Virus record (IMG/VR): IMGVR_UViG_2516653005_000001
Location: 36,993-100,992 of that record
Strand: one strand, 5' to 3'
Length of the DNA: 64,000 nucleotides
DNA from: a virus
Lineage: Duplodnaviria; Caudoviricetes
In this document: one piece after another, positions 4,957 to 46,994 of the stretch
Layout: the number at the start of each line of letters is the position of its first letter
Position numbering within the stretch: position 1 is the stretch's first letter
The notes under the pieces: model-generated
Databases searched by the model: none
The model's input: only the letters and a program-made list of their open reading frames with translations
Told to the model about the DNA's origin: nothing
Position numbers and translations under genes: made by a program

Positions 4957-5030
4957 TGGCACCAGAGGAAGGACTCGAACCTTCGCGCAGCGGTTTTGGA
5001 GACCGTGCGGCTACGCCGGAGCGCTCTGAT
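4957..5030 (-). tRNA. tRNA-Trp(CCA), atypical short D-arm
   Basis: ATCAGAG/CTCTGGT acceptor, CT-CCA-AA loop, GAAGG-TTCGAGT-CCTTC, CCA end; C8 and shortened D region. Confidence 0.75.
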
Positions 5031-19079: not shown

Positions 19080-19613
19080 ATGAAGGCGTTCAATAAGGAC
19101 GAACCATTTACCCTTTCGGAGGTCGAAGCCGCCCTCTGTGTGTGGGAGACCATTCTCAAATGGGTGTGCGACGAGCAGTGCAAACGCCCAGAATGGGAAG
19201 GCGCCAATGATGGTTACGGAGCATATGAGCTGCGCATGCAGTCCATGGTGCTTGGCCGCTGGTGTCTGGCAGTCATCGACATCTGCGAGAAGCGCGACCC
19301 CCAACTGTTCGATGGCATGGCATGGGACTGGGAAGTCATCCCGTTGGTCCTCGGCTACGCAATGACAGCAGACGGACAAGCCGCAATCTATGCACAAGAA
19401 CTTCGCGATTATCGCGACATTGCGGAACTGGTCTATGACCGTGTCAAGCGCGACGAGTTCATCGGAAAAGCCAAGGCTCATGCCGCGTTGATGGGTCTCT
19501 CAGCAGATCTGATCGACGATCACCCGAGTGAAGTCGACAACGCTATCGGCGAGGGCCAAGCCCCGAAAGACTTCGTCACCAAGCTCGCACTGAGTGTGGC
19601 CGACGCCTCCTGA
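19080..19613 (+). CDS. Hypothetical protein
   Basis: 177-aa ORF. Confidence 0.7.
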   Translation: MKAFNKDEPFTLSEVEAALCVWETILKWVCDEQCKRPEWEGANDGYGAYELRMQSMVLGRWCLAVIDICEKRDPQLFDGMAWDWEVIPLVLGYAMTADGQAAIYAQELRDYRDIAELVYDRVKRDEFIGKAKAHAALMGLSADLIDDHPSEVDNAIGEGQAPKDFVTKLALSVADAS

Positions 19614-19618
19614 CAAAC

Positions 19619-19695
19619 GCTCCAATCGTCTAACGGCTAGGACGTCAGCCCCCTCAGGCTGGAAATACGCGGTTCGAGTCCCGTTTGGAGCGCCA
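19619..19695 (+). tRNA. tRNA-Glu-like gene with 8-nt anticodon loop (CCCCUCAG) and bulged T-stem
   Basis: GCTCCAA/TTGGAGC; TCAGC-CCCCTCAG-GCTGG; ACG(C)GG-TTCGAGT-CCCGT; G-CCA; 77 nt. Confidence 0.85.
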
Positions 19696-19737
19696 TCTTC
19701 GTAACTACTCGTTTGCTTGAATTGGAAGGATGAGCGA

Positions 19738-20328
19738 ATGCAAATCTCGTTGAAGCGCGCACTTAAACTGCGCAAGGAACTGGAAGGCCGGTTGAGCTCC
19801 ATGGAGTTTCCGACCGCCGTTAATATCAGCCTGCTCACGGACCTGAGCCGCGAGCAGATCGAGACCGCTATCGAAGCGGCGTCGACGGCGATCGACAAAG
19901 CGTTCGCTCAGTACGAGCAACTGTCTCGCGTCCTCGCCGAGCTGCGCCAGAACATCGCGAAGGCCAACCTCGATAACGGTGTCGAAGCGGCGCTGTCCGA
20001 GATCGCTCACATCGATCGCAAGATCACCATCCGGAAGAAGCTCGCCAGCATCGCGGTGATGCCGCAGATCGACGCAGTCATGGCTGAGGTCGAGTTCTCT
20101 CGCCGCGCTCTGATCTCGCCCGATACGACCAGCTATCGTTCACCGTCCAAGGCGATCGGCTTCTCGGCGGTCTCCGAAACGCTGAAGGAAGAGATCGCCG
20201 GCGAGCTGGCGCAGCTTCGGCGCGACCGCGAAGCCATCGAAGACAAGCGCGCAGCCGCCAACGCTGGCACGCGTATCACCATTGCTGATGAGGACAACGA
20301 ACTGCTCCGGCAGCTCGGCATCCTCTGA
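19738..20328 (+). CDS. All-helical coiled-coil protein, DIP1984/DUF6847-like
   Basis: ISLKRALKLRKEL...LRQNIAKAN...IEDKRAAANAGTRITI pattern; family call is by resemblance only. Confidence 0.5.
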   Translation: MQISLKRALKLRKELEGRLSSMEFPTAVNISLLTDLSREQIETAIEAASTAIDKAFAQYEQLSRVLAELRQNIAKANLDNGVEAALSEIAHIDRKITIRKKLASIAVMPQIDAVMAEVEFSRRALISPDTTSYRSPSKAIGFSAVSETLKEEIAGELAQLRRDREAIEDKRAAANAGTRITIADEDNELLRQLGIL

Positions 20329-20334
20329 CGCAAT

Positions 20335-20545
20335 GGGAGGGGTACTTGTAGAGAGATACTGAAACATTTCGCTCTTCAATGAGCGCCATTGGCAAACGGC
20401 TTTTCGTTATCCGGAATAATCAACCAAGCCCGATCCTAGCTATCTGGGCATTCGTGAATTGATCCGGTTTATGGGCCTTCGTTGCTCGTGCTTCGTCGCT
20501 CGTTTGTGGTCGATCGTTCGTATCTCATCAACTCGTACCCCTCCC
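20335..20545 (+). ncRNA. Candidate ncRNA with closing stem and heptad repeats
   Basis: GGGAGGGGTAC/GTACCCCTCCC, GAGATAC/GTATCTC; six 7-nt units at 20478-20519. Confidence 0.65.
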
Positions 20546-20550
20546 TCCCC

Positions 20551-20625
20551 GCTCCGCTCGTCTATCGGCTAGGACGCTCGCTTCTCAGGCGAGAAAGACA
20601 GGTTCGACTCCTGTGCGGAGCACCA
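20551..20625 (+). tRNA. tRNA-Glu(CUC), A73
   Basis: CTCGC-TTCTCAG-GCGAG, 4-nt variable loop, ACAGG-TTCGACT-CCTGT, CCA. Confidence 0.93.
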
Positions 20626-20669
20626 TCGATTTCCCCTGCCCGAACTAAGCACACGGTTTCGGACGCCAG

Positions 20670-20746
20670 GCTCCCATCGTCTATCGGCTAGGACACCGTC
20701 CCCCTCAGGACGGAAAGGCGCGGTTCGAGTCCCGCTGGGAGCGCCA
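20670..20746 (+). tRNA. tRNA-Glu-like gene with 8-nt anticodon loop (CCCCUCAG) and bulged T-stem
   Basis: GCTCCCA/TGGGAGC; CCGTC-CCCCTCAG-GACGG; GCG(C)GG-TTCGAGT-CCCGC; G-CCA; 77 nt. Confidence 0.85.
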
Positions 20747-20769
20747 TTCAATTCACCACAGGCAACACC

Positions 20770-21768
20770 ATGAAACTCGAAAATATCGGCTTCTACACGC
20801 TCTCCGATTTCAGAGCGCAACATGCGTCTGCAACGTCCGATCTCAAGCGCTGCGAGGTCGTGCTGACATCGCGCTGCAACTTCAACTGTCCCTACTGCCG
20901 GCATGTCGGCGGCGACGACCTGGCTCTCGAACACGCCAAGACTGTGGTGAAGCTGTGGGCGGCTGACAACCTGTCCGCGATCCGCTTCTCCGGCGGAGAA
21001 CCGACGCTGTATCCAGGTCTCGGCGAGCTGGTCGATCTGTCCGCGTCTCTCGGCATCGGCCGCATCGCCATCTCATCGAACGGCTCGATCGCGTGGCGTC
21101 GCTACCAGGAGCTGATCAATCGGGGCGTCAACGACTTCTCGATCTCGCTGGACGCTTGCTGCGCCGAGGTCGGCGACAAGATGGCCGGCGGCATCAAAGG
21201 CGCATGGGCCAAGGTTGTCGCCAACATCGAGCGGATCAGCGCGGCAACCTACACGACGGTCGGCGTCGTCCTCACCGAGGACAATATCAAGACTGTCAAC
21301 GACATCATCCGTTTCGCTGCCGGCCTCGGCGTTGCCGATATCCGCATCATTCCTGCGGCCCAGGACGGCGACCGCCTGCGCGGCGTGGAGGTCGATCAGG
21401 ATCTGCTCGACAAGTTCCCGATCCTGAACTACCGGATCAAGAACTTGCAGGCCGGTCGGCCAGTGCGCGGCGTCTCCAAGACCGACACCCCGAAGTGCGG
21501 CCTCGTCCTCGACGACATGGCCGTGTGCGGGGACGAGCACTACCCCTGCATCATCTACATGCGTGAGGGCGGCGCTCCGATTGGTAAGGTCGGCCCGAAC
21601 ATGCGGTCCGAACGCGAGGCGTGGCACGCGACCCACAATTCGCGTCTCGACCCGATCTGCAGCCGCAACTGCCTCGACGTTTGCGTCGACTACAACAACA
21701 AGCACGCCAACTTCGCTTGCGCCAAGATGCGCAAGATGCAGGAGCGGGAATACGCAATCGCGTGCTGA
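20770..21768 (+). CDS. Radical SAM protein with C-terminal auxiliary-cluster cysteines
   Basis: CNFNCPYC, SGGEP, SISLD; C...YPC...CSRNCLDVC. Confidence 0.92.
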   Translation: MKLENIGFYTLSDFRAQHASATSDLKRCEVVLTSRCNFNCPYCRHVGGDDLALEHAKTVVKLWAADNLSAIRFSGGEPTLYPGLGELVDLSASLGIGRIAISSNGSIAWRRYQELINRGVNDFSISLDACCAEVGDKMAGGIKGAWAKVVANIERISAATYTTVGVVLTEDNIKTVNDIIRFAAGLGVADIRIIPAAQDGDRLRGVEVDQDLLDKFPILNYRIKNLQAGRPVRGVSKTDTPKCGLVLDDMAVCGDEHYPCIIYMREGGAPIGKVGPNMRSEREAWHATHNSRLDPICSRNCLDVCVDYNNKHANFACAKMRKMQEREYAIAC

Positions 21769-21776
21769 TCCAACAC

Positions 21777-21851
21777 GCTCCAATCGTCTATCGGCTAGGA
21801 TGCCAGCTTCTCAGGCTGGAGAGGTAGGTTCGATTCCTGCTTGGAGCGCCA
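21777..21851 (+). tRNA. tRNA-Glu(CUC), G73
   Basis: CCAGC-TTCTCAG-GCTGG, GTAGG-TTCGATT-CCTGC, CCA. Confidence 0.93.
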
Positions 21852-21866
21852 TTTCAAGGACGTAAC

Positions 21867-22172
21867 ATGACTGACCTTTGCGTCGACGATCGCTTTCCAA
21901 TTGTCAGCGAAGACTGCGAGCCCTTCGCTGCGATGATGATCGGCAAGATGTGGGCGCGAGCCCAGGCCGTGAAGGGCGATCCGGATATGTACATCCTTGC
22001 GATGAGAAACGTCTGGTGGACGGCGGAGCAGCTGCTCCGCCTTTCTATCCTTGCTTCGACTGCAACGCACTTCTGCATTGCCTGCAACAACCATCTGCAA
22101 ATCTTGGCGCAGATAATCAAAGCGGAGTTCGGTGTCGATCCGAACAACGAACCAAGCTGGCAATGGAAATAG
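21867..22172 (+). CDS. Hypothetical protein
   Basis: AAGGA RBS. Confidence 0.6.
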   Translation: MTDLCVDDRFPIVSEDCEPFAAMMIGKMWARAQAVKGDPDMYILAMRNVWWTAEQLLRLSILASTATHFCIACNNHLQILAQIIKAEFGVDPNNEPSWQWK

Positions 22173-22340
22173 ATCCTCTAGGGAGGATTGAGCGCACGTG
22201 CCCGAATCCCGGTCTGGTCAAGACACGTGCGCAATAGTCCGGTGGCTACCTTGCCCGTAAGGGTGCGGTTTCAATCCGCTTAATAGCTAGACGACTGAGC
22301 GGTGTCGGCAAACCCGGCAAGCGCGGTGGAAAGCCGCGCA
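22172..22340 (+). ncRNA. Candidate structured RNA with T-loop-like hairpins
   Basis: GCGCACGTG/CACGTGCGC; GCCC-GTAA-GGGT; GCGG-TTTCAAT-CCGC; GCGCGG-TGGAAAG-CCGCGC. Confidence 0.55.
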
Positions 22341-22373
22341 ACAATTTCAACAAGCCAATGATGGAGAACCGGC

Positions 22374-22559
22374 ATGAGTGCCGATCGCATCTATGTGTCT
22401 GAGCGCTCCGCCGCAGATGCTGGCAGGAAAGCTGTCAAGCTTCGTAAGGCTGACGACTTTCGCATCCTTCCACGTATCCAGCGCAATCCAGATCGCTCGA
22501 TTGAACGCGGCTTCGCAGCACTGCTGAAGATACGCGGACGCAGCGTTGGCTACGCCTGA
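22374..22559 (+). CDS. Small basic protein
   Basis: GGAGA RBS. Confidence 0.6.
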   Translation: MSADRIYVSERSAADAGRKAVKLRKADDFRILPRIQRNPDRSIERGFAALLKIRGRSVGYA

Positions 22560-22654
22560 ACATCATGGCCGGTTCGCCCTCCTTCCCGGCCATGAGCGGT
22601 CGCTCTCCTCGTGAGGGCGACCGCAGCTTACCTCACCACAACAGGAACACCGTC

Positions 22655-22840: not shown

Positions 22841-23524
22841 ATGAGCAAAGCACTTTACAGTCTCGGCGGGCTCCGCTTCTGGGACGAAAGCGAAATCGAA
22901 CTTCGCGAGATGTTTCAGTCCCGCGCGGTCTCCGTCGTTAAACGCTCGCTGATCAGCCTCAACAAGGCGTGGACCATCACTCGTATGGAAGGTCCGTGTC
23001 TGTCACCGCGTGACCAGATCAGCGCATCGTATGGCGATGACGATCTGTTCTGCACCAATCACACAGCCGGCGGCGGACAGCTCTACCTGCGGGCAGAGAC
23101 GACGCCGTCCAGTTACGCCTTCGCCCGGAAACTCTCGGCGAAGCTTCCGCTCTGTGTCTGGCAGTCCGGCAAAAGCTTCCGCCGCGAAACCAATGACGGG
23201 GCGAGCGCCAGCAAGCTGCGCTTCAACGAGTTCTGGCAACTCGAATTTCAGTGCATCTATGCTGAGGACACCAAAGCCGACTATCGCGCAGAGGTGATCG
23301 CCGCGCTGTGCCCTGAACTTCTTCGCTTCACCGGCCGGCTTCCGCGCACGGTGCCGAGTGACCGCCTGCCTTCGTATTCGGAAAGCACGATCGATATCGA
23401 GCTGAGCCTCGGCGAGGGCAAGTGGCGCGAAGTCGCATCGTGCTCGATCCGCAACGACTACCTTCCCGGAACGAAGGTCTGCGAGATCGCTATCGGTCTG
23501 GATCGCGTCGTTTCGCTTGCTTAG
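22841..23524 (+). CDS. Stand-alone class II aminoacyl-tRNA synthetase catalytic domain, GlyRS(alpha2)-like, no anticodon-binding domain
   Basis: YLRAETT, motif 2 QSGKSFRRE...LRFNEFWQLE, WREVAS, motif 3 EIAIGLDRV at the extreme C-terminus. Confidence 0.85.
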   Translation: MSKALYSLGGLRFWDESEIELREMFQSRAVSVVKRSLISLNKAWTITRMEGPCLSPRDQISASYGDDDLFCTNHTAGGGQLYLRAETTPSSYAFARKLSAKLPLCVWQSGKSFRRETNDGASASKLRFNEFWQLEFQCIYAEDTKADYRAEVIAALCPELLRFTGRLPRTVPSDRLPSYSESTIDIELSLGEGKWREVASCSIRNDYLPGTKVCEIAIGLDRVVSLA

Positions 23525-23546: not shown

Positions 23547-23741
23547 ATGCCCGAATACTCTATTCGTGATTGCGGGCAGGAGTCGGTCAAGGTGTTCCGA
23601 AAGCGCGAGCGCTCACACTCGCTCGCGCATGCTTGGAGAACACCGAGTGGCTTCTGGATCGTCAGTGTCACCGGCCTCAAAATGGACGTAACCCCCAACA
23701 GGAAGTCCGCCAAGGACTATCTGAGGAAGTATTTCAAATGA
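23547..23741 (+). CDS. Hypothetical protein
   Basis: GGAGG RBS. Confidence 0.6.
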   Translation: MPEYSIRDCGQESVKVFRKRERSHSLAHAWRTPSGFWIVSVTGLKMDVTPNRKSAKDYLRKYFK

Positions 23742-25081
23742 TCACCGGAGACACACTGATCCTGTGGGGCTTTAAGCCAGGCCGCTGGTTCAAACAGGCC
23801 ATCGCCGATGCCAACAAGCTGCGGAGCGACGGCCTGAGCGACGATCAGATCTTCACCTATCTGCAATCGCTGCAGCCGGTCGAGATCACGCTGCGGACGA
23901 ACTCGCTTCCCTATGGCATTTTCATCGATCACAACACTGATCAAGAGCGAGCCAACGTCGAAGCTGTCGTTCGACACATGGATGCGCTGATGCGCGTGCC
24001 GACCATCAAGGATGGCGCGGTCATGCCGGACTCTTGCCCCGCCGGCGCTGCCGAAGGCACGATTCCAGTCGGCGGCGTCGTCTCCTGCGAAGACGCTATC
24101 CATCCCGGCTTCCACTCGGCGGATATCTGCTGTTCGGTCGCGATCAGCACCTTCCGCCGCGACGACAACCCGAAGGTCCTGCTCGACGCCGTCCAGGCCG
24201 TCACGCATTTTGGACCCGGCGGGCGTTCGAGGTCGAACAACCTTGTTCCGAAGGAACTCCTGGCCAAGATGGACGGCAACCGCTTCCTGCACGAGCTGGA
24301 AGGCTATGCACGCGCCCACTTCGCCACACAGGGTGACGGCAACCACTTCGCCTACGTCGGACGGGTGAAATCAAGCGGTAAGCTGGCGCTTGTCACCCAT
24401 CACGGCTCGCGTGGCTTTGGTGCTCAGGTCTACAAGCGCGGCATGGCGGCGGCCAAGAAGCACACCGCGATCGTCGCCCCGAAGGTGCCGGCACACAACG
24501 CCTGGATCAAGGCGGACAGTGACGATGGCCGCGCCTATTGGGAGGCTCTCCAGGTTGTCCGCGAATGGACCAAGGCGAACCACTTCGCGATCCACGATCT
24601 GGCCGCCCGTGCCATCGGCAACGGCGTCGACGAACGCTTCTGGAACGAGCACAACTTCGTCTTCCAGAAGAGCGACGGGCTGTTCTACCACGGCAAGGGC
24701 GCGACCCCGAATTGGTCCGGCTTCTCACCCGACGACTCCGGCCTCACGCTCGTTGCCCTGAACATGGCCGAGCCGATCTTGATGTTGGCGCACACCAACA
24801 ACAAGGAAGCCCTCGGCTTTGCTCCGCACGGAGCCGGTCGCAACATGGGTCGCAGGGCATTCCTTCGCGACAATGCGCCGGAGCTTCCGGCCGGCATCGA
24901 CGCCCGCTTCTACTGCGGCAAGCCCGATCTCGCAGAACTTCCGCAAGCCTATAAGGATGCGGCTTCTGTTCGAGCCCAGATCGACAAGTACCAGATCGGC
25001 CGCGTCGTCGATGAGATCATTCCCTACGGCTCGATCATGGCCGGCGATTGGGAGAAGGACGCACCATGGCGAAAGAAGTGA
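23738..25081 (+). CDS. rtcB: RtcB family RNA ligase
   Basis: MPD, DICCS, GDGNHF, HHGSRG, NEHNF, HGKGA, PHGAGR, ELPQAYK; start at ATG 23738. Confidence 0.92.
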   Translation: MITGDTLILWGFKPGRWFKQAIADANKLRSDGLSDDQIFTYLQSLQPVEITLRTNSLPYGIFIDHNTDQERANVEAVVRHMDALMRVPTIKDGAVMPDSCPAGAAEGTIPVGGVVSCEDAIHPGFHSADICCSVAISTFRRDDNPKVLLDAVQAVTHFGPGGRSRSNNLVPKELLAKMDGNRFLHELEGYARAHFATQGDGNHFAYVGRVKSSGKLALVTHHGSRGFGAQVYKRGMAAAKKHTAIVAPKVPAHNAWIKADSDDGRAYWEALQVVREWTKANHFAIHDLAARAIGNGVDERFWNEHNFVFQKSDGLFYHGKGATPNWSGFSPDDSGLTLVALNMAEPILMLAHTNNKEALGFAPHGAGRNMGRRAFLRDNAPELPAGIDARFYCGKPDLAELPQAYKDAASVRAQIDKYQIGRVVDEIIPYGSIMAGDWEKDAPWRKK

Positions 25082-27613: not shown

Positions 27614-28240
27614 ATGCCCAGCACCAACGCAGCCGTCGCCTCGTCCTCCAGCGCGGCCCTGCCGATCGGCGATATCGATTACAACCGCCCGATCAGACTG
27701 GTCGACAACTACGACGACGACGCCGGCCATACCGACGTCAAGGTTCTGACCGTCATCGAAGGCGCGACCTACCCGATCGTCATCCAGTCGACCGATCCGG
27801 ATGGCGACATCGTGGTCGGCCAGTTCGACCTGGAAGGCGACCATCTCACTGGCGATCTGCGGGTCAAGAACCTCCAGAACGGCCCCGCGACGATCTACGT
27901 TGCGGTCCTGCGCGACGGCGACGGTGAGCTCTACGCCGACCAGGAGGTCTACACCAGCGAGCGGGACGCCATCGACGGCAACGAATTCGAAAACCTTGTG
28001 TTCGTGAGCCCCGTCGAGATCCCGGACGTTTCCGCCAACTTCGTTTCCACCACCAAGACCATCGGCGGCCAGCAGTTCAGCGTCGGTGAGCGCGTCAGCG
28101 CCTATCGCCGAGGCTTCGGCACCTCGACTGCCACGATCGTGAAGTTCCGCGAGCACCCGAGCCGCTCGCTCTACATCCAGCCCGAAGATGGCCGCAACGC
28201 CTACTGGGCCGTGAACAGCAACATCTCGAAGCTGTCGTAA
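27614..28240 (+). CDS. Hypothetical protein
   Basis: AGGAG RBS, MPSTNAA; strong codon bias. Confidence 0.8.
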   Translation: MPSTNAAVASSSSAALPIGDIDYNRPIRLVDNYDDDAGHTDVKVLTVIEGATYPIVIQSTDPDGDIVVGQFDLEGDHLTGDLRVKNLQNGPATIYVAVLRDGDGELYADQEVYTSERDAIDGNEFENLVFVSPVEIPDVSANFVSTTKTIGGQQFSVGERVSAYRRGFGTSTATIVKFREHPSRSLYIQPEDGRNAYWAVNSNISKLS

Positions 28241-28286
28241 TCGAACGACGGAGAGGCGCCCGCCCCACGGCGGGCGCATCCATCCC

Positions 28287-28475
28287 ATGGCAGACAAGGC
28301 AGACACCCCGGACAAGCCGACTCTCTATGCCCGGCTGAATGGAACGACGATCCGCGCGAAGTGGCCAGGAAAGCGTTGGCATGGCGCATATCCGAACATT
28401 CACGCCGCCCGCGAGGCCGCGATGAAGGATGGACTGTCGAAGTTCGTGATCGATTACGTGACTGAGGAGCACTGA
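28287..28475 (+). CDS. Hypothetical protein
   Basis: 62-aa ORF. Confidence 0.5.
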   Translation: MADKADTPDKPTLYARLNGTTIRAKWPGKRWHGAYPNIHAAREAAMKDGLSKFVIDYVTEEH

Positions 28476-28582
28476 CAAGCGGCACCTTGGACTACCCGAC
28501 TACAAAAAACAAAAAGACTACAATTCGATCAACAGCAAAAGTGACGGAGCAGATTTGAAACAAGAACCATACGCCAGAGAAA

Positions 28583-28902
28583 GGGCGGTCATCAGTCATG
28601 ATGGTCCACACCGCATCCGGAGTCCGCCGACTCCGTAGCTACAATCCTCGAGATAGACCGTCCATCCAGCATCGCGAAGAGTTTCGACAGAAAGGCTTCA
28701 TCGAAATGGATGGACTAAGGAATGATCGTTCCAGAAGACGGGGTCATACGACCCCGAATGTATAACGCTCGTGACAGACCGGTAACTTGCTCAAAGGAAG
28801 CATCGCTCAGCGACTCCAATGATCAAGCAGGTCATCATGATCGTATCAGAAGACGGGGTCTCACGGCTCCGCGTTTACAACGCCCGAGACAGACCGGCGT
28901 AA
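28583..28902 (+). repeat. Three diverged ~60-nt direct repeats, each with a conserved hairpin
   Basis: CGGRGTC-N4-GRCYCCG at 28618, 28739, 28854, each followed by TAYAAYSCYCGWGAYAGACCG. Confidence 0.85.
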
Positions 28903-29021
28903 GCCGACACTCGAACTAATCATCCACCACTCATCAATGCGCGAGCACCTGGCCCGAAAGGGTCCGGGCGACTGCGCACGTCATCTCGTGCGCACGAATG
29001 CAATCGAAAAGGAGGTTGCAA

Positions 29022-30347
29022 ATGTTCTATCTCATCAGACTGAAGCGTGATGCGTCTGGAGAGCTGATCCAGGAGCCGATCCCAGAAGCTGGTACTTTCG
29101 AAAAGGGCAGCGACGCCGGCCGCGAGGCAAAGGTCTGGGAAGCCCGACTCGGCGTGAAGGTGCAGTGCCGCCGCAAGAGCCAGGCCCCCGATTGGCGTGC
29201 CCGTGAAAAGCAGCGCATCGAAGCTGGCCACTATCGTCCGCTCCCCGATGGCTGGACGCTTCAGCCGATCGCTGATCACTTCGCCCATATCGCTCCGTCC
29301 GATCACACCAAGATCGAGTTCACCGAGTCGGAGGATCTGGCGATCATTGACCGGCGCACCATCTTGTCGCCCGGCCGCTACATCAGCCGCTTCTACCCCG
29401 ACGTCGACGACAACACGCGACGGAAGCTGATCGCATCCATCGATCCTAACTCCGATCTGTATTTCGCCTACACCCGCGAAGAAATTGCGATGGTGTACAA
29501 GACAGGCCCGTCTTCGTGCATGGACGGCTCGCACGATTTCCGCCATCTGCCCTGCATGCCGGTCGAAGCTTACGCCGGCGGCGATCTTGCGGTCGTCTAC
29601 ACCAAGAACTCGCGCGGCCAAATCCAATCTCGCGCTGTCTGCTTCCCCGCGAAGAAGCTGTACGGCCGATGCTATGGAGACCAACAGCGTCTTTCTGCAG
29701 CACTCGACGCTGAGGGCTGGACCTACGTCCGCAACTTCATGGACGATGACCGTCGTTTTATGAACGGCGCGAAGCTTCTGAAGATCGAAGCTGACAAGGG
29801 CCAAGGCACCTATGTGATGCCTTATCTCGACGACATCAACTATGCCGTCGATAAGGGGGACCACTTTATCTCCACGTCCTCCGTCACTAACGATGACATC
29901 TTCATCCAGTGCGGCGGGACCGGCGGCTATTCCCCGCTGTTTCGCTACTGCCCCAAGTGGGACGGCCCGATGCCGGCGCATGATTTCGCGTTTGTCGAGG
30001 GCGTCAATCAGTGGTGGTCGCGCCGAGCCATCTCTGAACATGCGTTTACTTGTGCCGGCTCGAACAAGATCTATCCGCGCGAACAGCGTGTCCCGATGTC
30101 GGACGGCCGATTTTGGTCGGAAGCGCACTTCAAAGAGCATGGCGCCTTCTGCTCAATCACCGGTCGCCGCTTTCCGAAAAGCGAGTTGGTGATGAAGGAT
30201 GGCAAGTGGGTCCATCCTAATAACGAACGCATCGTCAATGCCAATCAGGCCAAAGCACGCGGCGGGAATAATGCCAGCGGCCGGGGTGCGGCGTACCTGA
30301 TCGTGGACGACATCCCCTACTACGATCCAATCCTGCGTGCGTCGTGA
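29022..30347 (+). CDS. Conserved hypothetical phage protein
   Basis: AGGAGG RBS; GPSSCM, RCYGD, VMPYLD motifs. Confidence 0.8.
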   Translation: MFYLIRLKRDASGELIQEPIPEAGTFEKGSDAGREAKVWEARLGVKVQCRRKSQAPDWRAREKQRIEAGHYRPLPDGWTLQPIADHFAHIAPSDHTKIEFTESEDLAIIDRRTILSPGRYISRFYPDVDDNTRRKLIASIDPNSDLYFAYTREEIAMVYKTGPSSCMDGSHDFRHLPCMPVEAYAGGDLAVVYTKNSRGQIQSRAVCFPAKKLYGRCYGDQQRLSAALDAEGWTYVRNFMDDDRRFMNGAKLLKIEADKGQGTYVMPYLDDINYAVDKGDHFISTSSVTNDDIFIQCGGTGGYSPLFRYCPKWDGPMPAHDFAFVEGVNQWWSRRAISEHAFTCAGSNKIYPREQRVPMSDGRFWSEAHFKEHGAFCSITGRRFPKSELVMKDGKWVHPNNERIVNANQAKARGGNNASGRGAAYLIVDDIPYYDPILRAS

Positions 30348-30357
30348 GGACATGACC

Positions 30358-31293
30358 ATGAACCCAGACGTATCCAAACTTCTCGCGATGCTCTCTTATC
30401 GTAGGCCGGCTGGATCTGAAAGCGAGAGGCAGTTCATCAAGCGCTTCATCGCTCCCCTCGGAACGACCGAGGACAAGTTCGGCAACCACATGATCACGAT
30501 CGGTAAAGACAAGCCGACCGTGCTGTGGTCGTGCCACACGGACTCGGTCCATCGCCAGGACGGCTTTCAGAAACTGTCCTGGAACGGCAAGCACATCGCA
30601 CTGCCGAAGGGCAGCAAGAGCAATTGCCTTGGTGCAGACGACGCAGCCGGCGTTTGGATTTTGATGCAGATGATCGAGGCAAAAGTCCCCGGTCTCTACA
30701 TCTTCCATCGCTCGGAAGAGATCGGCTGTATCGGCTCGTCGTCGATCGCAATGGAAACCCCCGAAGTGCTCGATGGCATTCGGATCGCAGTTGCGTTCGA
30801 TCGCAGGGGAACTGACTCGGTCATCACGCATCAGGGACAGCGTTGCTGCTCCGATGCGTTTGCCATTTCTCTGGCCAAGCAGCTACCGAAGCGGTTCAAG
30901 CTCGACGCAACCGGCGTACTCACCGACACGCGCATCTATATGCCGCTTGTCGACGAGTGCTCGAATGTGTCGGTCGGATACTCGGATGAGCATGGCCCGA
31001 CCGAAGCCCTCGATGTCGAGCACCTTCTGGAGCTTCGCGACCACATGGTTGCGATCGACCAGACGTCATTGGTGATCGAGCGGAGCTGCTCTGACTACGT
31101 TCCGTATGTCAAGAAGCCCTATCAGCCATACACGCAGTCATCGATGTTCGACGACGACATCGAACCGAAGAACATCCAAGACCTCGTGTGGATGTATCCA
31201 CGGCGCGTCGCGGACTTTCTCGAAGACAACGGCATCACGTTCGACGTGCTGCTCGAAGAGATCAATAATCGCGACCGTCGTGTCGCCGTCTGA
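30358..31293 (+). CDS. M28-like zinc peptidase
   Basis: SCHTDSVH, LGADDAAG, EEIG, FDRRG, TD, EH. Confidence 0.85.
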   Translation: MNPDVSKLLAMLSYRRPAGSESERQFIKRFIAPLGTTEDKFGNHMITIGKDKPTVLWSCHTDSVHRQDGFQKLSWNGKHIALPKGSKSNCLGADDAAGVWILMQMIEAKVPGLYIFHRSEEIGCIGSSSIAMETPEVLDGIRIAVAFDRRGTDSVITHQGQRCCSDAFAISLAKQLPKRFKLDATGVLTDTRIYMPLVDECSNVSVGYSDEHGPTEALDVEHLLELRDHMVAIDQTSLVIERSCSDYVPYVKKPYQPYTQSSMFDDDIEPKNIQDLVWMYPRRVADFLEDNGITFDVLLEEINNRDRRVAV

Positions 31294-31304
31294 AGGGGCC
31301 AACA

Positions 31305-33422
31305 ATGAAACTCGGACTGAAGAACCACACCGACATCGCCGCTGGTGTCCAGAAGGAAACCCGCATCACTATCTCGGCGAACGCCGTATCGTTCTACGCG
31401 CAGATCTCCGGCGTCGCTTCGGACAAGATCGGCTACGCGATGCGCGAGATTTCGGCGAACGCCTGGGACGCTTCGCGCGGGAATTTCGAACTGCATCTGC
31501 CGACGCAGGTCGATCCGACGTGCCGCTGGCGGGACTTCGGCCCCGGTATGTCGCCGGAAGACATGGATAACATCTGGGCGCGCATGTACGAGAGCACCAA
31601 ACGCTCGGACGACAGCGCGGTCGGCGGCTGGGGTCTCGGCCGCTTCTCTCCGTTCGCATACCTGATTAGCGAAGGCGGCGCCGGCTCCTACTCCGTCACG
31701 AGCTACCACGACGGTATGATGCACGCCTACGAGATGATGCTCGACATCAACGGCAGTCCGGTTATGCGGCTGATGTTCTCCGGCGAGAGCAACGAACCGT
31801 CCGGGATGGAAATCTCTTTCGGTGTCCGCCGGAACGACATCCCCACCTTCCGCAGCAAGGCATCCACCATCCTGTGGTCGTTCGAGCCGCGCCCGAAGAT
31901 CTATCCGGATCTCGGCTGGAAGGAGCCGGTCGTCACCATGGCCGGCGAGAACTGGACCGTCTACAACGGCAACACCGTGCCGTTTATCGGCCCGCAGGTG
32001 CGCATGGGCTGCGTTATGTATCCCATCAATCTGCACCTCATCAAGCATTCCGGTTTCCTCAATCCGAGCGAAGCAATCGTCTTCGACGCCAAGATCGGTA
32101 GCCTGCGTGTGACGCTGTCCCGCGAGGATCTCGCCTACGACGACGTGACCAAGGCAACGATCGAGCAGCTCGTTGCCGAGTACGAAGAGTCGTTTGTTGC
32201 AAAGATCCAGGAGGCCGTAAGTGCGGCCTCGAACTGGTTCTCTGCAAATGAGGCGTTCAACAGCGCCATGAAGCCGTTCGGCTCCTGGTGTATGGACGAA
32301 GTTCGCAAGCGCGTCTCCTGGAATGGCTACAAGCTGAGCCACTGGCTCGACAAGAGCGACATCAAGATGATGCGTCTCGGCGAGGGGTGGTCTTCGTTCG
32401 AGAAATTCTCTTCCGAAAACGTCCTGTCGACCTGGCCGGCGGACGCGACCATCGTGATCGAGCACAACCCGAGCTATTCCGCACAGCGCTTCGCGCTTGC
32501 CGATCTGGTCGGCAAGAAGCTGCTCTGGATCCGCTGCAAGCGCGATTGTCGCAGTGAAGTCCTGGCGGCCATGGGTAATCCTGACGTCGTCGATCTCGAC
32601 GACTACAAGATCACGCCGGCCGAGCGTGCAAAGCGGACCATTCGCAAGCGTCGCACGCTACTGGTCAACAGTGCCGGCAATCTCTGGCGCGAGACTGTCG
32701 ACATCGACATGGCAGAGGGCGGACTCTACGTCGAGACGTCGCCCTCCCTCCGCCGCTGGGGAACCTACGGCCAGGAATGGTACAGGGTCGCCAGCGGTCG
32801 CCAGCAGATGAACTTCAGTGCGATCGACGACGTCGTCGAGACCTGCGTCCAACTTGGCCTGATCGCGAAGGGAACTCGCATCCTGATCAGCAACGCGGAT
32901 GTCACGCTGGCGGATAACTGGGAGCTGCTCGGCGACAATCTGATCCCGAGGTTGACTGCGCTGGTCGACAAGACCCAGTTCAGCGCCTTGCACGGTCGGA
33001 AGCTCACGGACATGGAGCGCGACCTTCGTCTGTTCTCCGAATGCAACGCGGATGGGTTGCCGAGCGATCTTAAGGCGCTCCATCAGAAGGCGGCTGAAAT
33101 GGCCGCATCGCTGCGGATCATCGAGAACGGCTCGTTCGTCCCCACGCCGAGCGATCGTGCCGCCGACGCTTTGGTTCGTCTCGGAGAAAACAACCTCCGG
33201 AACGACGTCCCCAGTCCGACAGCCGCACTGAACCAAGAGTGGGTTGCCATGAAGCGGCGTTACCCGTTGCTGCGAGCCGTGATGTCATCGACCGCCTACG
33301 GCTACGGCAGTCGCGTCGAAGCTCAGCCGATGCTCTCTCACTACGCTTCGCTGCTGGCTGACCGTACCAAATTGCAACTTCTGAAATCGGCCTCCGATGG
33401 CCAGATGAAGGAAGCCGCGTAG
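31305..33422 (+). CDS. rIIA: rIIA-like GHKL ATPase protein
   Basis: REISANAWDA, DFGPGMS, ESTKR...GGWGLG, MGCVMYPI, TLSREDL. Confidence 0.85.
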   Translation: MKLGLKNHTDIAAGVQKETRITISANAVSFYAQISGVASDKIGYAMREISANAWDASRGNFELHLPTQVDPTCRWRDFGPGMSPEDMDNIWARMYESTKRSDDSAVGGWGLGRFSPFAYLISEGGAGSYSVTSYHDGMMHAYEMMLDINGSPVMRLMFSGESNEPSGMEISFGVRRNDIPTFRSKASTILWSFEPRPKIYPDLGWKEPVVTMAGENWTVYNGNTVPFIGPQVRMGCVMYPINLHLIKHSGFLNPSEAIVFDAKIGSLRVTLSREDLAYDDVTKATIEQLVAEYEESFVAKIQEAVSAASNWFSANEAFNSAMKPFGSWCMDEVRKRVSWNGYKLSHWLDKSDIKMMRLGEGWSSFEKFSSENVLSTWPADATIVIEHNPSYSAQRFALADLVGKKLLWIRCKRDCRSEVLAAMGNPDVVDLDDYKITPAERAKRTIRKRRTLLVNSAGNLWRETVDIDMAEGGLYVETSPSLRRWGTYGQEWYRVASGRQQMNFSAIDDVVETCVQLGLIAKGTRILISNADVTLADNWELLGDNLIPRLTALVDKTQFSALHGRKLTDMERDLRLFSECNADGLPSDLKALHQKAAEMAASLRIIENGSFVPTPSDRAADALVRLGENNLRNDVPSPTAALNQEWVAMKRRYPLLRAVMSSTAYGYGSRVEAQPMLSHYASLLADRTKLQLLKSASDGQMKEAA

Positions 33423-36694: not shown

Positions 36695-37012
36695 GTGGCC
36701 AAACCATCTACACGAAGCCCATCGCGAAAGTTCCTGTCTGGGACCGACTTCCGGACGTGGAGGGTTTCACGCGGTCTTACGCTCGCTGAAGTCGCCGACT
36801 GGCTAGGGCTCACAATTCCGGCGATAGCAGCATATGAAAAGCGCGGAGCCACTAAGGCAGTTGCCCTCGCGCTGTCGGCTGTCGACAGAGGGCTCCAGCC
36901 CTATAAGCCGACCGATTTAGATCAGGAAGCCGCCAAGAAGGACGTCTCAACGAAGTCCAAGGTCAAGGCAGGAAATGAACGAGCAACAAAGCGCCCAGTC
37001 CGAAAAACATGA
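36695..37012 (+). CDS. XRE/Cro-like HTH protein
   Basis: FRTWRVSRGLTLAEVADWLGLT...YEK. Confidence 0.8.
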   Translation: MAKPSTRSPSRKFLSGTDFRTWRVSRGLTLAEVADWLGLTIPAIAAYEKRGATKAVALALSAVDRGLQPYKPTDLDQEAAKKDVSTKSKVKAGNERATKRPVRKT

Positions 37013-44437: not shown

Positions 44438-44461
44438 TTGCAAAGGTCCGCCACAATGCAA

Positions 44462-45385
44462 ATGTTCTCACGTACCAAACACCTCCAGATGTCCGATGAA
44501 GCGAAGCTCGCTCGGCGCAAGTCGATCGGCGGCTCTGATGCACGCATCATCGCTTCTGGCGATCAGATCGCCATCGAGAAGCTCTGGGCCGAGAAGCGAG
44601 GCGAGGTCGCACCCGAAGACCTGTCGGACTCGCTGGTCGTTCAACTCGGCAACACCACTGAGCCGCTGAACCTCGACTGGTTCGAGAAGGACACCGGCTT
44701 CCTGATCGTTGATGCGCAGAAGAAGTTCTTCTTCTCGGAGTGGGGGTTCGCTCACGCCACGGTCGACGGCCTCGTCACCAAGGAAGAGAACGAGGCCCCG
44801 TTCGCCGTGTTCGAGGCGAAGTTCATGCTGCCGTTCAACTTCTCGAAGGAGAAGGCGATCGAGAAATACTACCCGCAGCTCCAGCACAACATGCTGTGCG
44901 TCGGTCTCGAGAGTTGCTTCATCTCGATCATCACTGGCGGTGGCCAATACTTCCGCGAAGAGATCCTCGCTGACGCGATGTACCAGTACGATCTGCTGAA
45001 GATGGAGAAGGACTTCTGGGATTGTGTCCAGACCGGCCGCACCCCTGGCAATCCGAAGGCTCCGGTGCCGGATATCGAGCGCATCAAGGTCGTCGACATG
45101 AGCGCCAACAACGAGTGGGCTGACTTGGCCTTTACGTTGGTGAGCACGAAGACGGCGACCGACAAGCACGAGAAGGCCAAGAAGGAGATCAAGAAACTCT
45201 TTCCGGCCGATGCAGCTGAGGCCTCTGGTCGCGGCGTGAAGATCGCTCTGTCGAAGGACAAGAAGCAACTCATCACCATCGATAAGGACGAGGTCGCCAA
45301 GACCGACGCCTTGTTCGGAGCGACCCCGCCCGTCGCTGAGAACGACAACGTCAAGGCCAAGAAGTCCCGCAAGAAAGCCGCTTAA
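44462..45385 (+). CDS. YqaJ-like recombination exonuclease
   Basis: RRKSIGGSD, GNTTEP, ATVDG, EAK, YYPQLQH. Confidence 0.9.
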   Translation: MFSRTKHLQMSDEAKLARRKSIGGSDARIIASGDQIAIEKLWAEKRGEVAPEDLSDSLVVQLGNTTEPLNLDWFEKDTGFLIVDAQKKFFFSEWGFAHATVDGLVTKEENEAPFAVFEAKFMLPFNFSKEKAIEKYYPQLQHNMLCVGLESCFISIITGGGQYFREEILADAMYQYDLLKMEKDFWDCVQTGRTPGNPKAPVPDIERIKVVDMSANNEWADLAFTLVSTKTATDKHEKAKKEIKKLFPADAAEASGRGVKIALSKDKKQLITIDKDEVAKTDALFGATPPVAENDNVKAKKSRKKAA

Positions 45386-46517: not shown

Positions 46518-46994
46518 GTGATGTCTAAGTCAGCAAAAGCCAAGAGCGGCTGGCTTCTCGCAAAGAAGGTCGACGGCAAGCTCGTCCCTTACGCGAAATA
46601 CGACGCAGAACGTTTCGCCGAAATCCCAGCCGACAAGATCATTCGCATCCAGGTCGCGCAGCCGCGCAGCATTCCGCGGCACCGCCTCTACCGGGTGTTG
46701 CTGCGGCAAGTCGTCAAGAACACGAACGCATTCGCCACTGACGACGCTCTGCACAAGACGTTGCTCGTTGGCTGTGGCGTCGTCGAGCCCGTTATCACGG
46801 TCGAAGGCGAGATAATCATGATCCCCTCCTCTACCGCGTTCGAGGCAATGCCCGAAGAGCAGTTCAAGACCTACTTCGATCAGGCCCTGACGATCATCTC
46901 CGAGCACATCATCCCAGGCGTCGATATCGACGACCTCCTGGTCGAAGCAAAGTCAGAGGCCGGTTGGCAGGAGCCGATCAAAGAGGCCGCATAA
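46518..46994 (+). CDS. DUF1367/NinB-like protein
   Basis: QPRS..RHRLY...PSSTAFEAM.EEQF..Y. Confidence 0.75.
   Translation: MMSKSAKAKSGWLLAKKVDGKLVPYAKYDAERFAEIPADKIIRIQVAQPRSIPRHRLYRVLLRQVVKNTNAFATDDALHKTLLVGCGVVEPVITVEGEIIMIPSSTAFEAMPEEQFKTYFDQALTIISEHIIPGVDIDDLLVEAKSEAGWQEPIKEAA

Follow-up and report, generated by a model that had tools for sequence, protein, structure and literature searches.

What use could a phage make of a glutamate tRNA (tRNA-Glu) whose anticodon loop is one base too long? The question is raised by a stretch of 64,000 nucleotides (nt), positions 36,993 to 100,992 of IMG/VR record IMGVR_UViG_2516653005_000001, called the window in the following. The window is part of a 101-kb record of a virus of the Caudoviricetes; among annotated relatives, Bradyrhizobium phage BDU-MI-1 comes closest to it, with a patchy identity of ~74%. 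Among its four Glu(CUC)-type tRNA genes in total are two, variant 1 (19619-19695, plus strand) and variant 2 (20670-20746, plus strand), that have an 8-nt anticodon loop together with an unpaired base in the T-stem. Natural 8-base anticodon loops are regarded as rare curiosities, represented by a mitochondrial tRNA of yeast and by frameshift suppressors obtained in the laboratory. Our data show that the two genes encode folded, CCA-ended Glu-type tRNAs of a widespread phage-borne family. As to their role, we tentatively put forward counter-defense by tRNA replacement, in which the phage would bring along a spare tRNA-Glu that is insensitive to attack on the anticodon loop.

Structure and authenticity of the variant genes

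Variant 1 is laid out as GCUCCAA-UC-GUCU-AACGGCUA-GGAC-G-UCAGC-CCCCUCAG-GCUGG-AAAU-ACG-C-GG-UUCGAGU-CCCGU-UUGGAGC-G-CCA, and variant 2 is arranged in the same way but with other stems (CCGUC/GACGG in the anticodon arm, GCUCCCA/UGGGAGC in the acceptor, GCG-C-GG/CCCGC in the T-arm). Both carry the loop CCCCUCAG, an encoded CCA end, and a T-arm of the form NCG-C-GG UUCGAGU CCCGN on a body with a Glu-type D-arm and a 4-nt variable region. With the Rfam tRNA model (RF00005) they scored 42.7 and 36.1 bits, above the gathering score of 29, and matched model positions 1-71 of 71; cmscan marked a single inserted base at each of two sites, the anticodon loop and the 5′ side of the T-stem. Where a canonical tRNA-Glu has U33 in a 7-nt loop, both variants have eight unpaired bases with C replacing U33, and where it has an uninterrupted 5-bp T-stem, they have an unpaired C between positions 51 and 52 (ACG-C-GG/CCCGU and GCG-C-GG/CCCGC, respectively). 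The remainder is of the Glu type, with a D-stem GUCU/GGAC, a GG-containing D-loop, the 4-nt variable region, and a purine 3′ of a YUC anticodon. These traits of D-arm, variable region, and anticodon are the identity elements that emerged from work on the glutamyl-tRNA synthetase (GluRS) of Escherichia coli.

Two ordinary tRNA-Glu(CUC) genes of 75 nt, both on the plus strand and both with the 7-nt loop UUCUCAG, lie at 20551-20625 (with a 5-bp T-stem; Rfam score, 51.4 bits) and 21777-21851 (51.9 bits). The latter has the acceptor stem in common with variant 1, and 56 of 67 positions outside the loop and the bulge are identical between the two. ARAGORN, run on the window with default settings, reported only the two ordinary tRNA-Glu(CUC) genes and called neither variant. 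A preliminary description of the locus, made from the sequence, had given both oddities for both genes (the 8-nt loop with C33 and the extra C at 51/52), pairing-preserving differences between their stems, and the two ordinary genes alongside; direct reading of the genes, cmscan, ARAGORN, and Rfam agree with it on every one of these points.

The same description had considered decay or sequencing error unlikely, and this was borne out. An independent metagenome run (X3) yielded one contig of 83.5 kb that spans 19505-21900 with 66 substitutions and 0 gaps, and therefore the variants are not sequencing errors; in a second run (X4), variant 1 was covered without an indel inside the tRNA. Among the substitutions that fall within the variants, two are telling: 19645 T>C turns U27·G43 of variant 1 into C-G, and 20702 C>A, in the X3 contig, alters the second loop base of variant 2, giving the loop CACCUCAG with the length of 8 nt retained.

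Furthermore, compensatory changes are found in relatives of the two genes. In an alignment (A3) of 24 unique members of the CUC type, scored on the cloverleaf, 97.7% of the cells were paired and both-sided changes were seen in 16 of 22 pairs, values not reached in any of 500 shuffles, and in every one of the slid controls pairing dropped to 35-53%. The architecture comprises a 7-bp acceptor stem and five paired T-stem positions, with pair 53-66 always formed. The D-arm columns are invariant in 24/24, in a collection whose patterns required a Glu-type D-arm. Pair 33-42 of the alignment, the innermost of the 5-bp anticodon stem, covaries (CG in 18 and GC in 6), which fixes the register and leaves eight loop bases unpaired. 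Of 52 metagenome members, only one fits a 7-nt-loop register with one extra base before the stem equally well. A sixth pair could form between C, the first loop base, and G, the last (C-G in 22 and U·G in 2 of the aligned members), and RNAfold and the permissive calls of ARAGORN prefer a 6-bp anticodon stem with a 6-nt loop. Since there is no double change at this pair and the search patterns forced G as the last loop base in most of the aligned sequences, the two folds are not distinguishable from these data, and the 6-bp stem with a 6-nt loop is possible.

The T-stem bulge is tied to the large loop. A single unpaired base at 51/52 was found in 10 of 26 unique viral 8-nt-loop genes (U in eight and C in two), compared to 0/87 normal-loop Glu-type viral genes among the matches listed (Fisher's exact test, p = 9e-8); the control genes were found with matched patterns, so the comparison speaks to the bulge and not to how frequent variant genes are relative to normal ones. 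In the alignment the extra base is present in 10/24, the other 14 having a perfect 5-bp T-stem, and the metagenome set added six more cases with a bulged U. The T-stem pairs 49-51/63-65 are described as setting the affinity for EF-Tu (PMC3239215), and judged solely from its position beside these pairs, the bulge may weaken EF-Tu binding. The association of bulge and 8-nt loop fits both the nonribosomal carrier and the nuclease decoy that had been proposed for the variants.

A phage-borne family and its genomic setting

Relatives of the variants were collected with sequence patterns. The viral pattern combined a Glu-type D-arm, YTC shifted by one base from the normal register, a purine, G, and the T-loop; every collection pattern demanded a Glu-type D-arm, then YTC or CTC with a purine and G after it, and finally GGTTCRA. 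The census is therefore too low for members that differ in the last loop base, the T-loop (such as L207:5749), or the D-arm, and the conservation of the final G, like that of the anticodon and R37, is no independent evidence, because YUC-R-G was forced by the patterns. The search returned 21 loci on viral contigs, with 32 hits and 26 unique genes including those of the window and BDU-MI-1; 19 loci in one-genome-per-species collections (185,579 species); and, with the CUC version of the pattern, 64 metagenome loci with 81 hits, of which 56 were unique and 51 in a clean 8-nt register. Further copies came from the permissive output of ARAGORN and a D-arm scan (L207:5749, L063:8354, L065:330, L065:770, L305:1598, L305:3364, and L314:7292). 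The 51 clean metagenome sequences had the loop CCCCUCAG in 18 cases, CCUCUCAG in 15, CUUCUCGG in 6, and CCUCUCGG in 4, the rest being rarer forms; the first loop base was C in 48, and CCA was encoded in 42. The family consensus of the loop is C-C-Y-C-U-C-R-G, and two to three tandem copies are common. The 5′ side of the loop varies among relatives (CCC, CCU, CUU, CAC, UCU, and CCG), while the length of 8 nt is constant. A version with a UUC anticodon and the loops CUUUUCAG, CUAUUCAG, or CUUUUCGG occurs mainly in jumbo-phage contigs.

A counterpart of variant 1, of equally unusual length, sits at the syntenic site of BDU-MI-1 (L001:5013-5089; KY940711.1, 114085-114161). It has the loop CUUCUCGG and, on the 5′ side of the T-stem, one base too many, and is labeled in GenBank as an ordinary "tRNA-Glu-TTC." When each variant was compared by blastn with 50,697 phage records, BDU-MI-1 was the sole look-alike; in five other records matched by variant 2, the matches are 71 to 72 bases long and annotated as ordinary tRNA-Glu or tRNA-Asp. 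A strict pattern with the exact D-loop of the window had 0 viral matches, and the looser pattern was used instead. The preliminary description had called for a search for the same double insertion elsewhere, and it is indeed present in BDU-MI-1 and in other viral contigs. A Mesorhizobium prophage (L207, Mesorhizobium sp. STM 4661) has two variants downstream of a gene for the RNA ligase RtcB, and the tRNAs of the viral record L062 are identical to them. In this genome, to which the comparison with host tRNAs is confined, the phage copies differ from those of the host in the loop (CUCUCAC and CUUUCAC in the host tRNA-Glu versus CCUCUCAG and CCCCUCAG in the prophage).

In some phages the variants are the only tRNAs. 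The tRNA model found one or two genes in each of five complete phages of 64 to 77 kb, and in four of them (G016, G018, G021, and G023) all tRNA matches are Glu(CUC)-type genes with an 8-nt loop; the fifth (G013) has an additional tRNA-Cys only. The gene of G023, a plain tRNA-Glu according to ARAGORN, could arguably be read in a 7-nt register as well.

Variant-like genes also occur in cellular genomes. A chromosomal 8-nt-loop tRNA-Glu-type paralogue is conserved across genera of the Pirellulales (L190, L191, L195, L196, L199, L200, L203, L204, L206, and L208); it adjoins a leuA-like gene, and its neighbors, read by eye from the sequences, are housekeeping genes only. Others were found in metagenome-assembled genomes (MAGs) of Polyangiaceae (L193 and L201) and Anaerolineales (L198). 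The loops of the cellular paralogues are UUUUUCGG, CUUUUCAG, CCUUUCAG, or UCUCUCGG. Ordinary tRNA-Glu genes accompany the 8-nt-loop gene in all five cellular genomes checked; in a Polyangiaceae MAG, the variant is of the UUC type, and the ordinary tRNA-Glu detected was of the CUC type only.

A few further RNA genes deserve mention. The UUC-type 8-nt-loop Glu-like genes of the jumbo-phage contigs L051, L055, L057, L058, and L064 are without an encoded CCA; several of the jumbo-phage UUC-type genes have mismatched anticodon stems, and some have a bulged U at 51a. At L261:6891-6963, in a record of the Mesorhizobium prophage type, ARAGORN reports a "tRNA-???" with the four-base anticodon gata directly after a tRNA-Pro, perhaps another kind of tRNA with an expanded loop. 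Within the Glu-tRNA cluster of the window, 20329-20550 and 22173-22564 have no convincing open reading frames (ORFs) and may encode other small RNAs; the only Rfam match there was at chance level (Xoo2, E 0.97, 22522-22630). Elsewhere in the window, a tRNA-Trp(CCA) called by ARAGORN at 4957-5030 (minus strand) scored 23.6 bits with the Rfam tRNA model, below the gathering score, and may be atypical.

Four protein-coding genes on the plus strand around the cluster were considered as partners of the variants or lie beside them. A 203-codon ORF of unknown function (19717-20328, with an in-frame ATG at 19738; phrog_25230) follows the variant tRNA syntenically in BDU-MI-1, where tblastn found 39% identity (L001). 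A radical SAM enzyme with a MoaA/SPASM-like N-terminal core is encoded at 20770-21768 (PF04055, 6.9e-19; NCBIfam matches all below cutoffs); as a partner it was rejected, being found in 0/20 other variant-carrying records, a weak negative, as the search had no positive control. With this enzyme as the anchor, ARAGORN was applied to the first 35 (L002-L036) of 49 related viral loci, and several of these lie in tRNA arrays with no specific link to tRNA-Glu. At 22841-23524 follows a stand-alone core of a class II synthetase similar to glycyl-tRNA synthetase (GlyRS) (PF00587, 31.3 bits; GlyRS chains in the PDB, E 8e-4; NF003211, 9.5e-10, far below cutoff). The preliminary description had set this enzyme beside host GluRS as a candidate for charging the variants; the link did not hold up, since the gene is GlyRS-like and occurs in 1/20 other variant-carrying records. 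In BDU-MI-1, a gene annotated as a GTP pyrophosphokinase takes its place directly upstream of RtcB, and the jumbo-phage contig G006, which has UUC-type variants, encodes a homologue of the core with 40% identity. RtcB itself is encoded at 23739-25081 (PF01139; phrog_1075, 4e-94), the start read from the sequence being ATG 23739 in an ATGA overlap, where the ORF list gave TTG 23570. Among rhizobial phages, it adjoins the variants in three (that of the window, BDU-MI-1, and L207/L062), and it was rejected as a general partner because it occurs in 1/18 other variant-carrying viral contigs, compared to 5/30 contigs with a normal-loop Glu gene.

What the variants may do

As read from the sequence, the variants appear to retain the features by which a tRNA-Glu is processed, folded, and recognized, and the altered surfaces would be those that meet anticodon-loop enzymes and EF-Tu. 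In our model, some hosts cut or modify the anticodon loop of tRNA-Glu upon infection or attack by a competitor, and the phage would supply copies of tRNA-Glu in which a single pyrimidine is added on the 5′ side of the CUC anticodon. The copies in the window have no uridine at 32 and 33, and the putative attacker may no longer fit or cut them. We infer that host GluRS would still glutamylate the variants by way of the Glu-type D-arm, the 4-nt variable region, the acceptor stem, and the anticodon, and that they would decode GAG mainly as a triplet. Charging is plausible because the GluRS of E. coli accepts an expanded loop: it selectively charged an engineered quadruplet tRNA on a tRNA-Glu scaffold (PMC9094753).

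Four observations (variants as the sole tRNA, multiple copies, a 5′ loop side that varies at fixed length, and RtcB in one lineage) fit counter-defense better than codon supplementation. The sole-tRNA status in particular is hard to reconcile with codon supplementation and agrees with descriptions of phage tRNAs that neutralize tRNA-targeting defenses (PMC10264068, PMC11464382, and PMC11555353). Anticodon-loop nuclease activity on tRNA-Glu(UUC), among others, has been described for Cas13a (PMC11042736). A replacement tRNA is ranked first on account of the direct precedents and the tolerance of GluRS for an expanded loop, and we regard it as the leading explanation while holding it with well under even confidence.

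A number of points weigh against a replacement tRNA. The variants of the window are without U33, and a decoder with an 8-nt loop should give some +1 slippage at the ~1,090 GAG codons of the phage. The 51a bulge adjoins the pairs that govern EF-Tu affinity, which is hard to explain for a tRNA delivered to the ribosome. Two normal tRNA-Glu(CUC) genes are also kept in the window, RtcB is missing in all but 1 of the 18 other viral contigs with variants, and the conservation of the anticodon and purine 37, forced by the patterns, cannot be counted in its favor. In the literature searched, we found no description of a nuclease specific for tRNA-Glu(CUC). Finally, the paralogues of Pirellulales and other cells, which stand beside normal tRNA-Glu, suggest a function that is not tied to phage infection.

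Several of these points would be accommodated if the variants were nontranslated decoys, that is, mimics of tRNA-Glu that titrate a host enzyme attacking or sensing this tRNA. The target might be an anticodon nuclease, a modifying toxin, or a defense sensor; the altered loop would prevent processing, and the T-stem bulge would keep the RNAs off EF-Tu and the ribosome and thus avoid damage by frameshifting. A decoy accounts for both oddities at once, including the confinement of the bulge to 8-nt-loop genes, as well as for GAGG sites that are not avoided and for the lack of recoding sites (see below), and it fits the high copy number, the sole-tRNA status, and the lack of an obligate phage protein partner. 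The tRNA-Cys species named selC* and the 8/4 tRNA-Sec bypass EF-Tu. It is in these two that a 51a bulge is otherwise described (PMC7609411). On the other hand, the 14 of 24 aligned members with a perfect 5-bp T-stem argue that exclusion from EF-Tu is not family-wide, and the encoded CCA and the intact Glu identity elements are equally expected of a working tRNA. Moreover, in the literature searched, the documented cases are functional replacement tRNAs, and no phage tRNA acting as a decoy for an anticodon nuclease is described. The decoy is ranked a close second, as it gives the better account of the bulge and of genomes that are indifferent to GAGG; we consider it a credible but unlikely alternative.

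A second role outside translation would be that of a nonribosomal glutamyl carrier: kept from EF-Tu by the bulge, the variants would donate glutamate to a phage transferase, in parallel to the tRNA-Gly of Staphylococcus aureus that feeds FemXAB. The coexistence of proteinogenic and nonproteinogenic tRNA-Gly is a described precedent (PMC4574755 and PMC12256121). The candidate transferase is protein A (28998-30347, plus strand), which belongs to no family and has a weak match to the GNAT fold; it marks a phage lineage with variant tRNAs upstream (tblastn, 5e-21 to 2e-32). It is paired with protein B (30337-31293, plus strand; phrog_4191, 1.9e-77), an M28-like metallopeptidase with conserved HTDTVH, GADD, EEIG, and GYxxxH motifs, and a RIIA-like gene (31305-33422) comes after the pair in the window. 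Genes for A and B lie at most 10 kb downstream of variants in the window, in the Mesorhizobium prophage, in G007, G013, G016, G018, G019, G021, G022, and G054, and in one jumbo phage, but the partial loci compared from G008, G014, G017, and G023 had no match to either.

Protein A, for which a confident model was obtained (pLDDT of 85.5 overall and 89.9 in the central domain), has Cys-rich C-terminal repeats and a central domain whose fold matches are almost only of the GNAT type (Z 3.5-5.1), with FemX, MprF, and Sbb17, all of them dependent on aminoacyl-tRNA, among the weak rows. The best Foldseek matches were FemX for the domain model (E 0.07) and a LIM-domain complex for the whole protein (E 0.027). 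All of these scores are within the noise guide of the tools (Z below 8; Foldseek E 0.027 or higher), and GNAT proteins that use acetyl-CoA and those that use tRNA are not separable here, so a GNAT-like protein A is a lead only. Sequence searches of the PDB with A and B gave no meaningful matches, and the ESM Atlas returned only unnamed viral clusters for A.

Locus searches with the single sequence of A or B found nothing, whereas an alignment-based search gave 346 viral relatives of B, of which the 80 best loci (L241-L320) were surveyed. A precedes B in 76 of them, but 74 are without a Glu-type tRNA within 10 kb, and A and B were rejected as obligate partners; by the D-arm scan, the remaining loci have 8-nt variants in five cases and only a normal Glu-type gene in one. 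In L308, ARAGORN calls an additional tRNA-Glu(UUC) that was missed by the D-arm scan. This tRNA-Glu(UUC)-like gene (L308:10964-11042), just after the B homologue, appears to have C33 and an extra base between the D and anticodon stems. In view of the tRNA-free B loci and the noise-level fold scores, the glutamyl carrier is an improbable explanation. Taken more broadly, the proposal that the variants are a new class of tRNA-derived RNAs for counter-defense or metabolism, kept out of translation, be it as decoys or as glutamyl donors for A, and that the cellular paralogues are likewise, is doubtful but has to be taken seriously. It is also conceivable, if rather unlikely, that some other explanation not listed here applies, and the Pirellulales paralogues are a reminder of this.

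The preliminary description had offered decoding of the quadruplet GAGG as a further use. An extended anticodon CCUC would read GAGG (and UCUC would read GAGR), at one programmed site or broadly with low efficiency. Characteristic of suf-type frameshift suppressors is an 8-nt loop that results from the insertion of one base (PMC4238358; 10.1101/2020.12.31.424971), all 20 isoacceptor classes are described as convertible to functional quadruplet tRNAs, the one on the Glu scaffold being selectively charged with Glu (PMC9094753), and ARAGORN gives four-base anticodons to some members of the family. Such decoding was not borne out in the carrier genomes. In 131 long ORFs of the window phage (86% coverage) with 1,086 in-frame GAG codons and their following base, G follows GAG in 30.8% (334 sites), compared to 31.4% after CAG, 33.8% after AAG, and 36.5% overall. 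The corresponding values are 35.1% versus 35.2% in G016 and 28.4% versus 33.9% in G021, where 31.6% after CAG points to a general NAG-G effect. Hence, GAGG is not specifically avoided, even in phages whose only tRNA is the variant.

A simple screen for open extensions of at least 40 to 60 codons in the +1 frame, with GAG-G in the overlap, found no +1 recoding site in three phage genomes, although this negative is a weak one; the good candidates each have their own Shine-Dalgarno sequence and start codon. In the window, the candidates at 46518-46994 and 44438-45385 have both within a few bases of the upstream stop, and in G016 (27637-29280) the downstream gene begins with GTG 29273, preceded by GAGGAG. 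Completion of the GlyRS-like gene by a +1 shift was likewise rejected: its core ends in a motif-3-like EIAIGLDRV and is already complete, and the stretch that follows is a separate gene starting at 23548. This 64-codon gene (23548-23741, plus strand), with a GGAGG Shine-Dalgarno sequence, lies between the GlyRS-like core and RtcB. In addition, the base 5′ of CUC differs among members (C, U, A, or G), and thus no single quadruplet is conserved. We therefore hold quadruplet decoding to be very improbable. Mimicry of an anti-Shine-Dalgarno sequence by the loop was dropped after inspection by eye, since only some loop variants would match. That the variants are functionless, decaying pseudogenes or assembly artefacts, as the missing call in the default ARAGORN run and Rfam scores below those of the normal copies might suggest, is effectively refuted by the gap-free independent assembly, by the recurrence of the architecture, with compensatory changes, in dozens of independent contigs, and by the sole-tRNA status in complete phages.

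Comparison with known systems

In sum, a conserved family with an 8-nt loop, statistically tied to a T-stem bulge, is present in several dozen or more independent contigs of phages and metagenomes. If its members are nuclease-proof tRNAs or decoys, they would point to an uncharacterized and widespread attack of hosts on tRNA-Glu and provide a handle to find it; if they are translated, they would be a natural experiment in how ribosomes deal with expanded loops. Censuses of phage tRNAs undercount such variants because standard finders miss or mislabel them (ARAGORN reports nothing or "tRNA-???," and GenBank has tRNA-Glu-TTC). Natural 8-nt loops, 51a bulges, and anti-defense phage tRNAs are each known separately, but the combination of loop and bulge in a conserved phage tRNA-Glu family is apparently undescribed: no such family came up in the open-access papers and preprints that made up the literature searched, supplements and subscription journals lying outside the search.

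The closest parallels are the anti-defense tRNAs of phages, with changes in the loop (van den Berg et al. 2023, PMC10264068), among them the tRNA-Lys of T5 that acts against PARIS (PMC11464382) and a tRNA-Tyr that counters retron Eco7 (PMC11555353). As described there, these too are phage copies of a host tRNA that differ in the loop, can be the sole tRNA or one of few, and adjoin RNA repair genes in some phages. They differ in that the published changes are substitutions in a 7-nt loop, whereas we find an inserted base, accompanied by a bulge in ~40% of cases, and the cognate nuclease of the 8-nt-loop tRNAs is only putative. The main text of PMC10264068 contains none of the terms "insertion," "extra nucleotide," "tRNA-Glu," "tRNAGlu," "eight," or "RtcB."

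The nonproteinogenic tRNA-Gly species of S. aureus are likewise extra isoacceptors with an altered T-stem that stand beside normal copies (PMC4574755, PMC12256121, and PMC3239215). According to these accounts, they have base-pair substitutions, a 7-nt loop, and FemXAB as a partner, whereas the phage family has a bulge and a candidate partner only. An unpaired nucleotide at 51a is shared with the selC* tRNA-Cys and a minor 8/4 tRNA-Sec (PMC7609411, citing Mukai et al. 2017), which differ from the 7/5 architecture and Glu-type body described here in their 8/4 acceptor/T layout and in bodies of the Sec or Cys type.

With respect to the loop, the tRNA-Thr(UAG) of yeast mitochondria is a natural and functional 8-nt-loop tRNA that decodes triplets (PMC3113583 and PMC7609411); it is organellar, derives from tRNA-His, is linked to a codon reassignment, has no T-stem bulge, and is neither of phage origin nor of the Glu type. 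The suppressors sufD, sufA6, sufB2, and sufJ and the engineered quadruplet tRNAs resemble the variants in that the 8-nt loop arises from one inserted base (PMC4238358, 10.1101/2020.12.31.424971, and PMC9094753). As presented in these sources, they are laboratory suppressors or products of design, whereas the phage tRNAs are natural, conserved, multicopy, and widespread, in carrier genomes that show neither avoidance of GAGG nor recoding sites.

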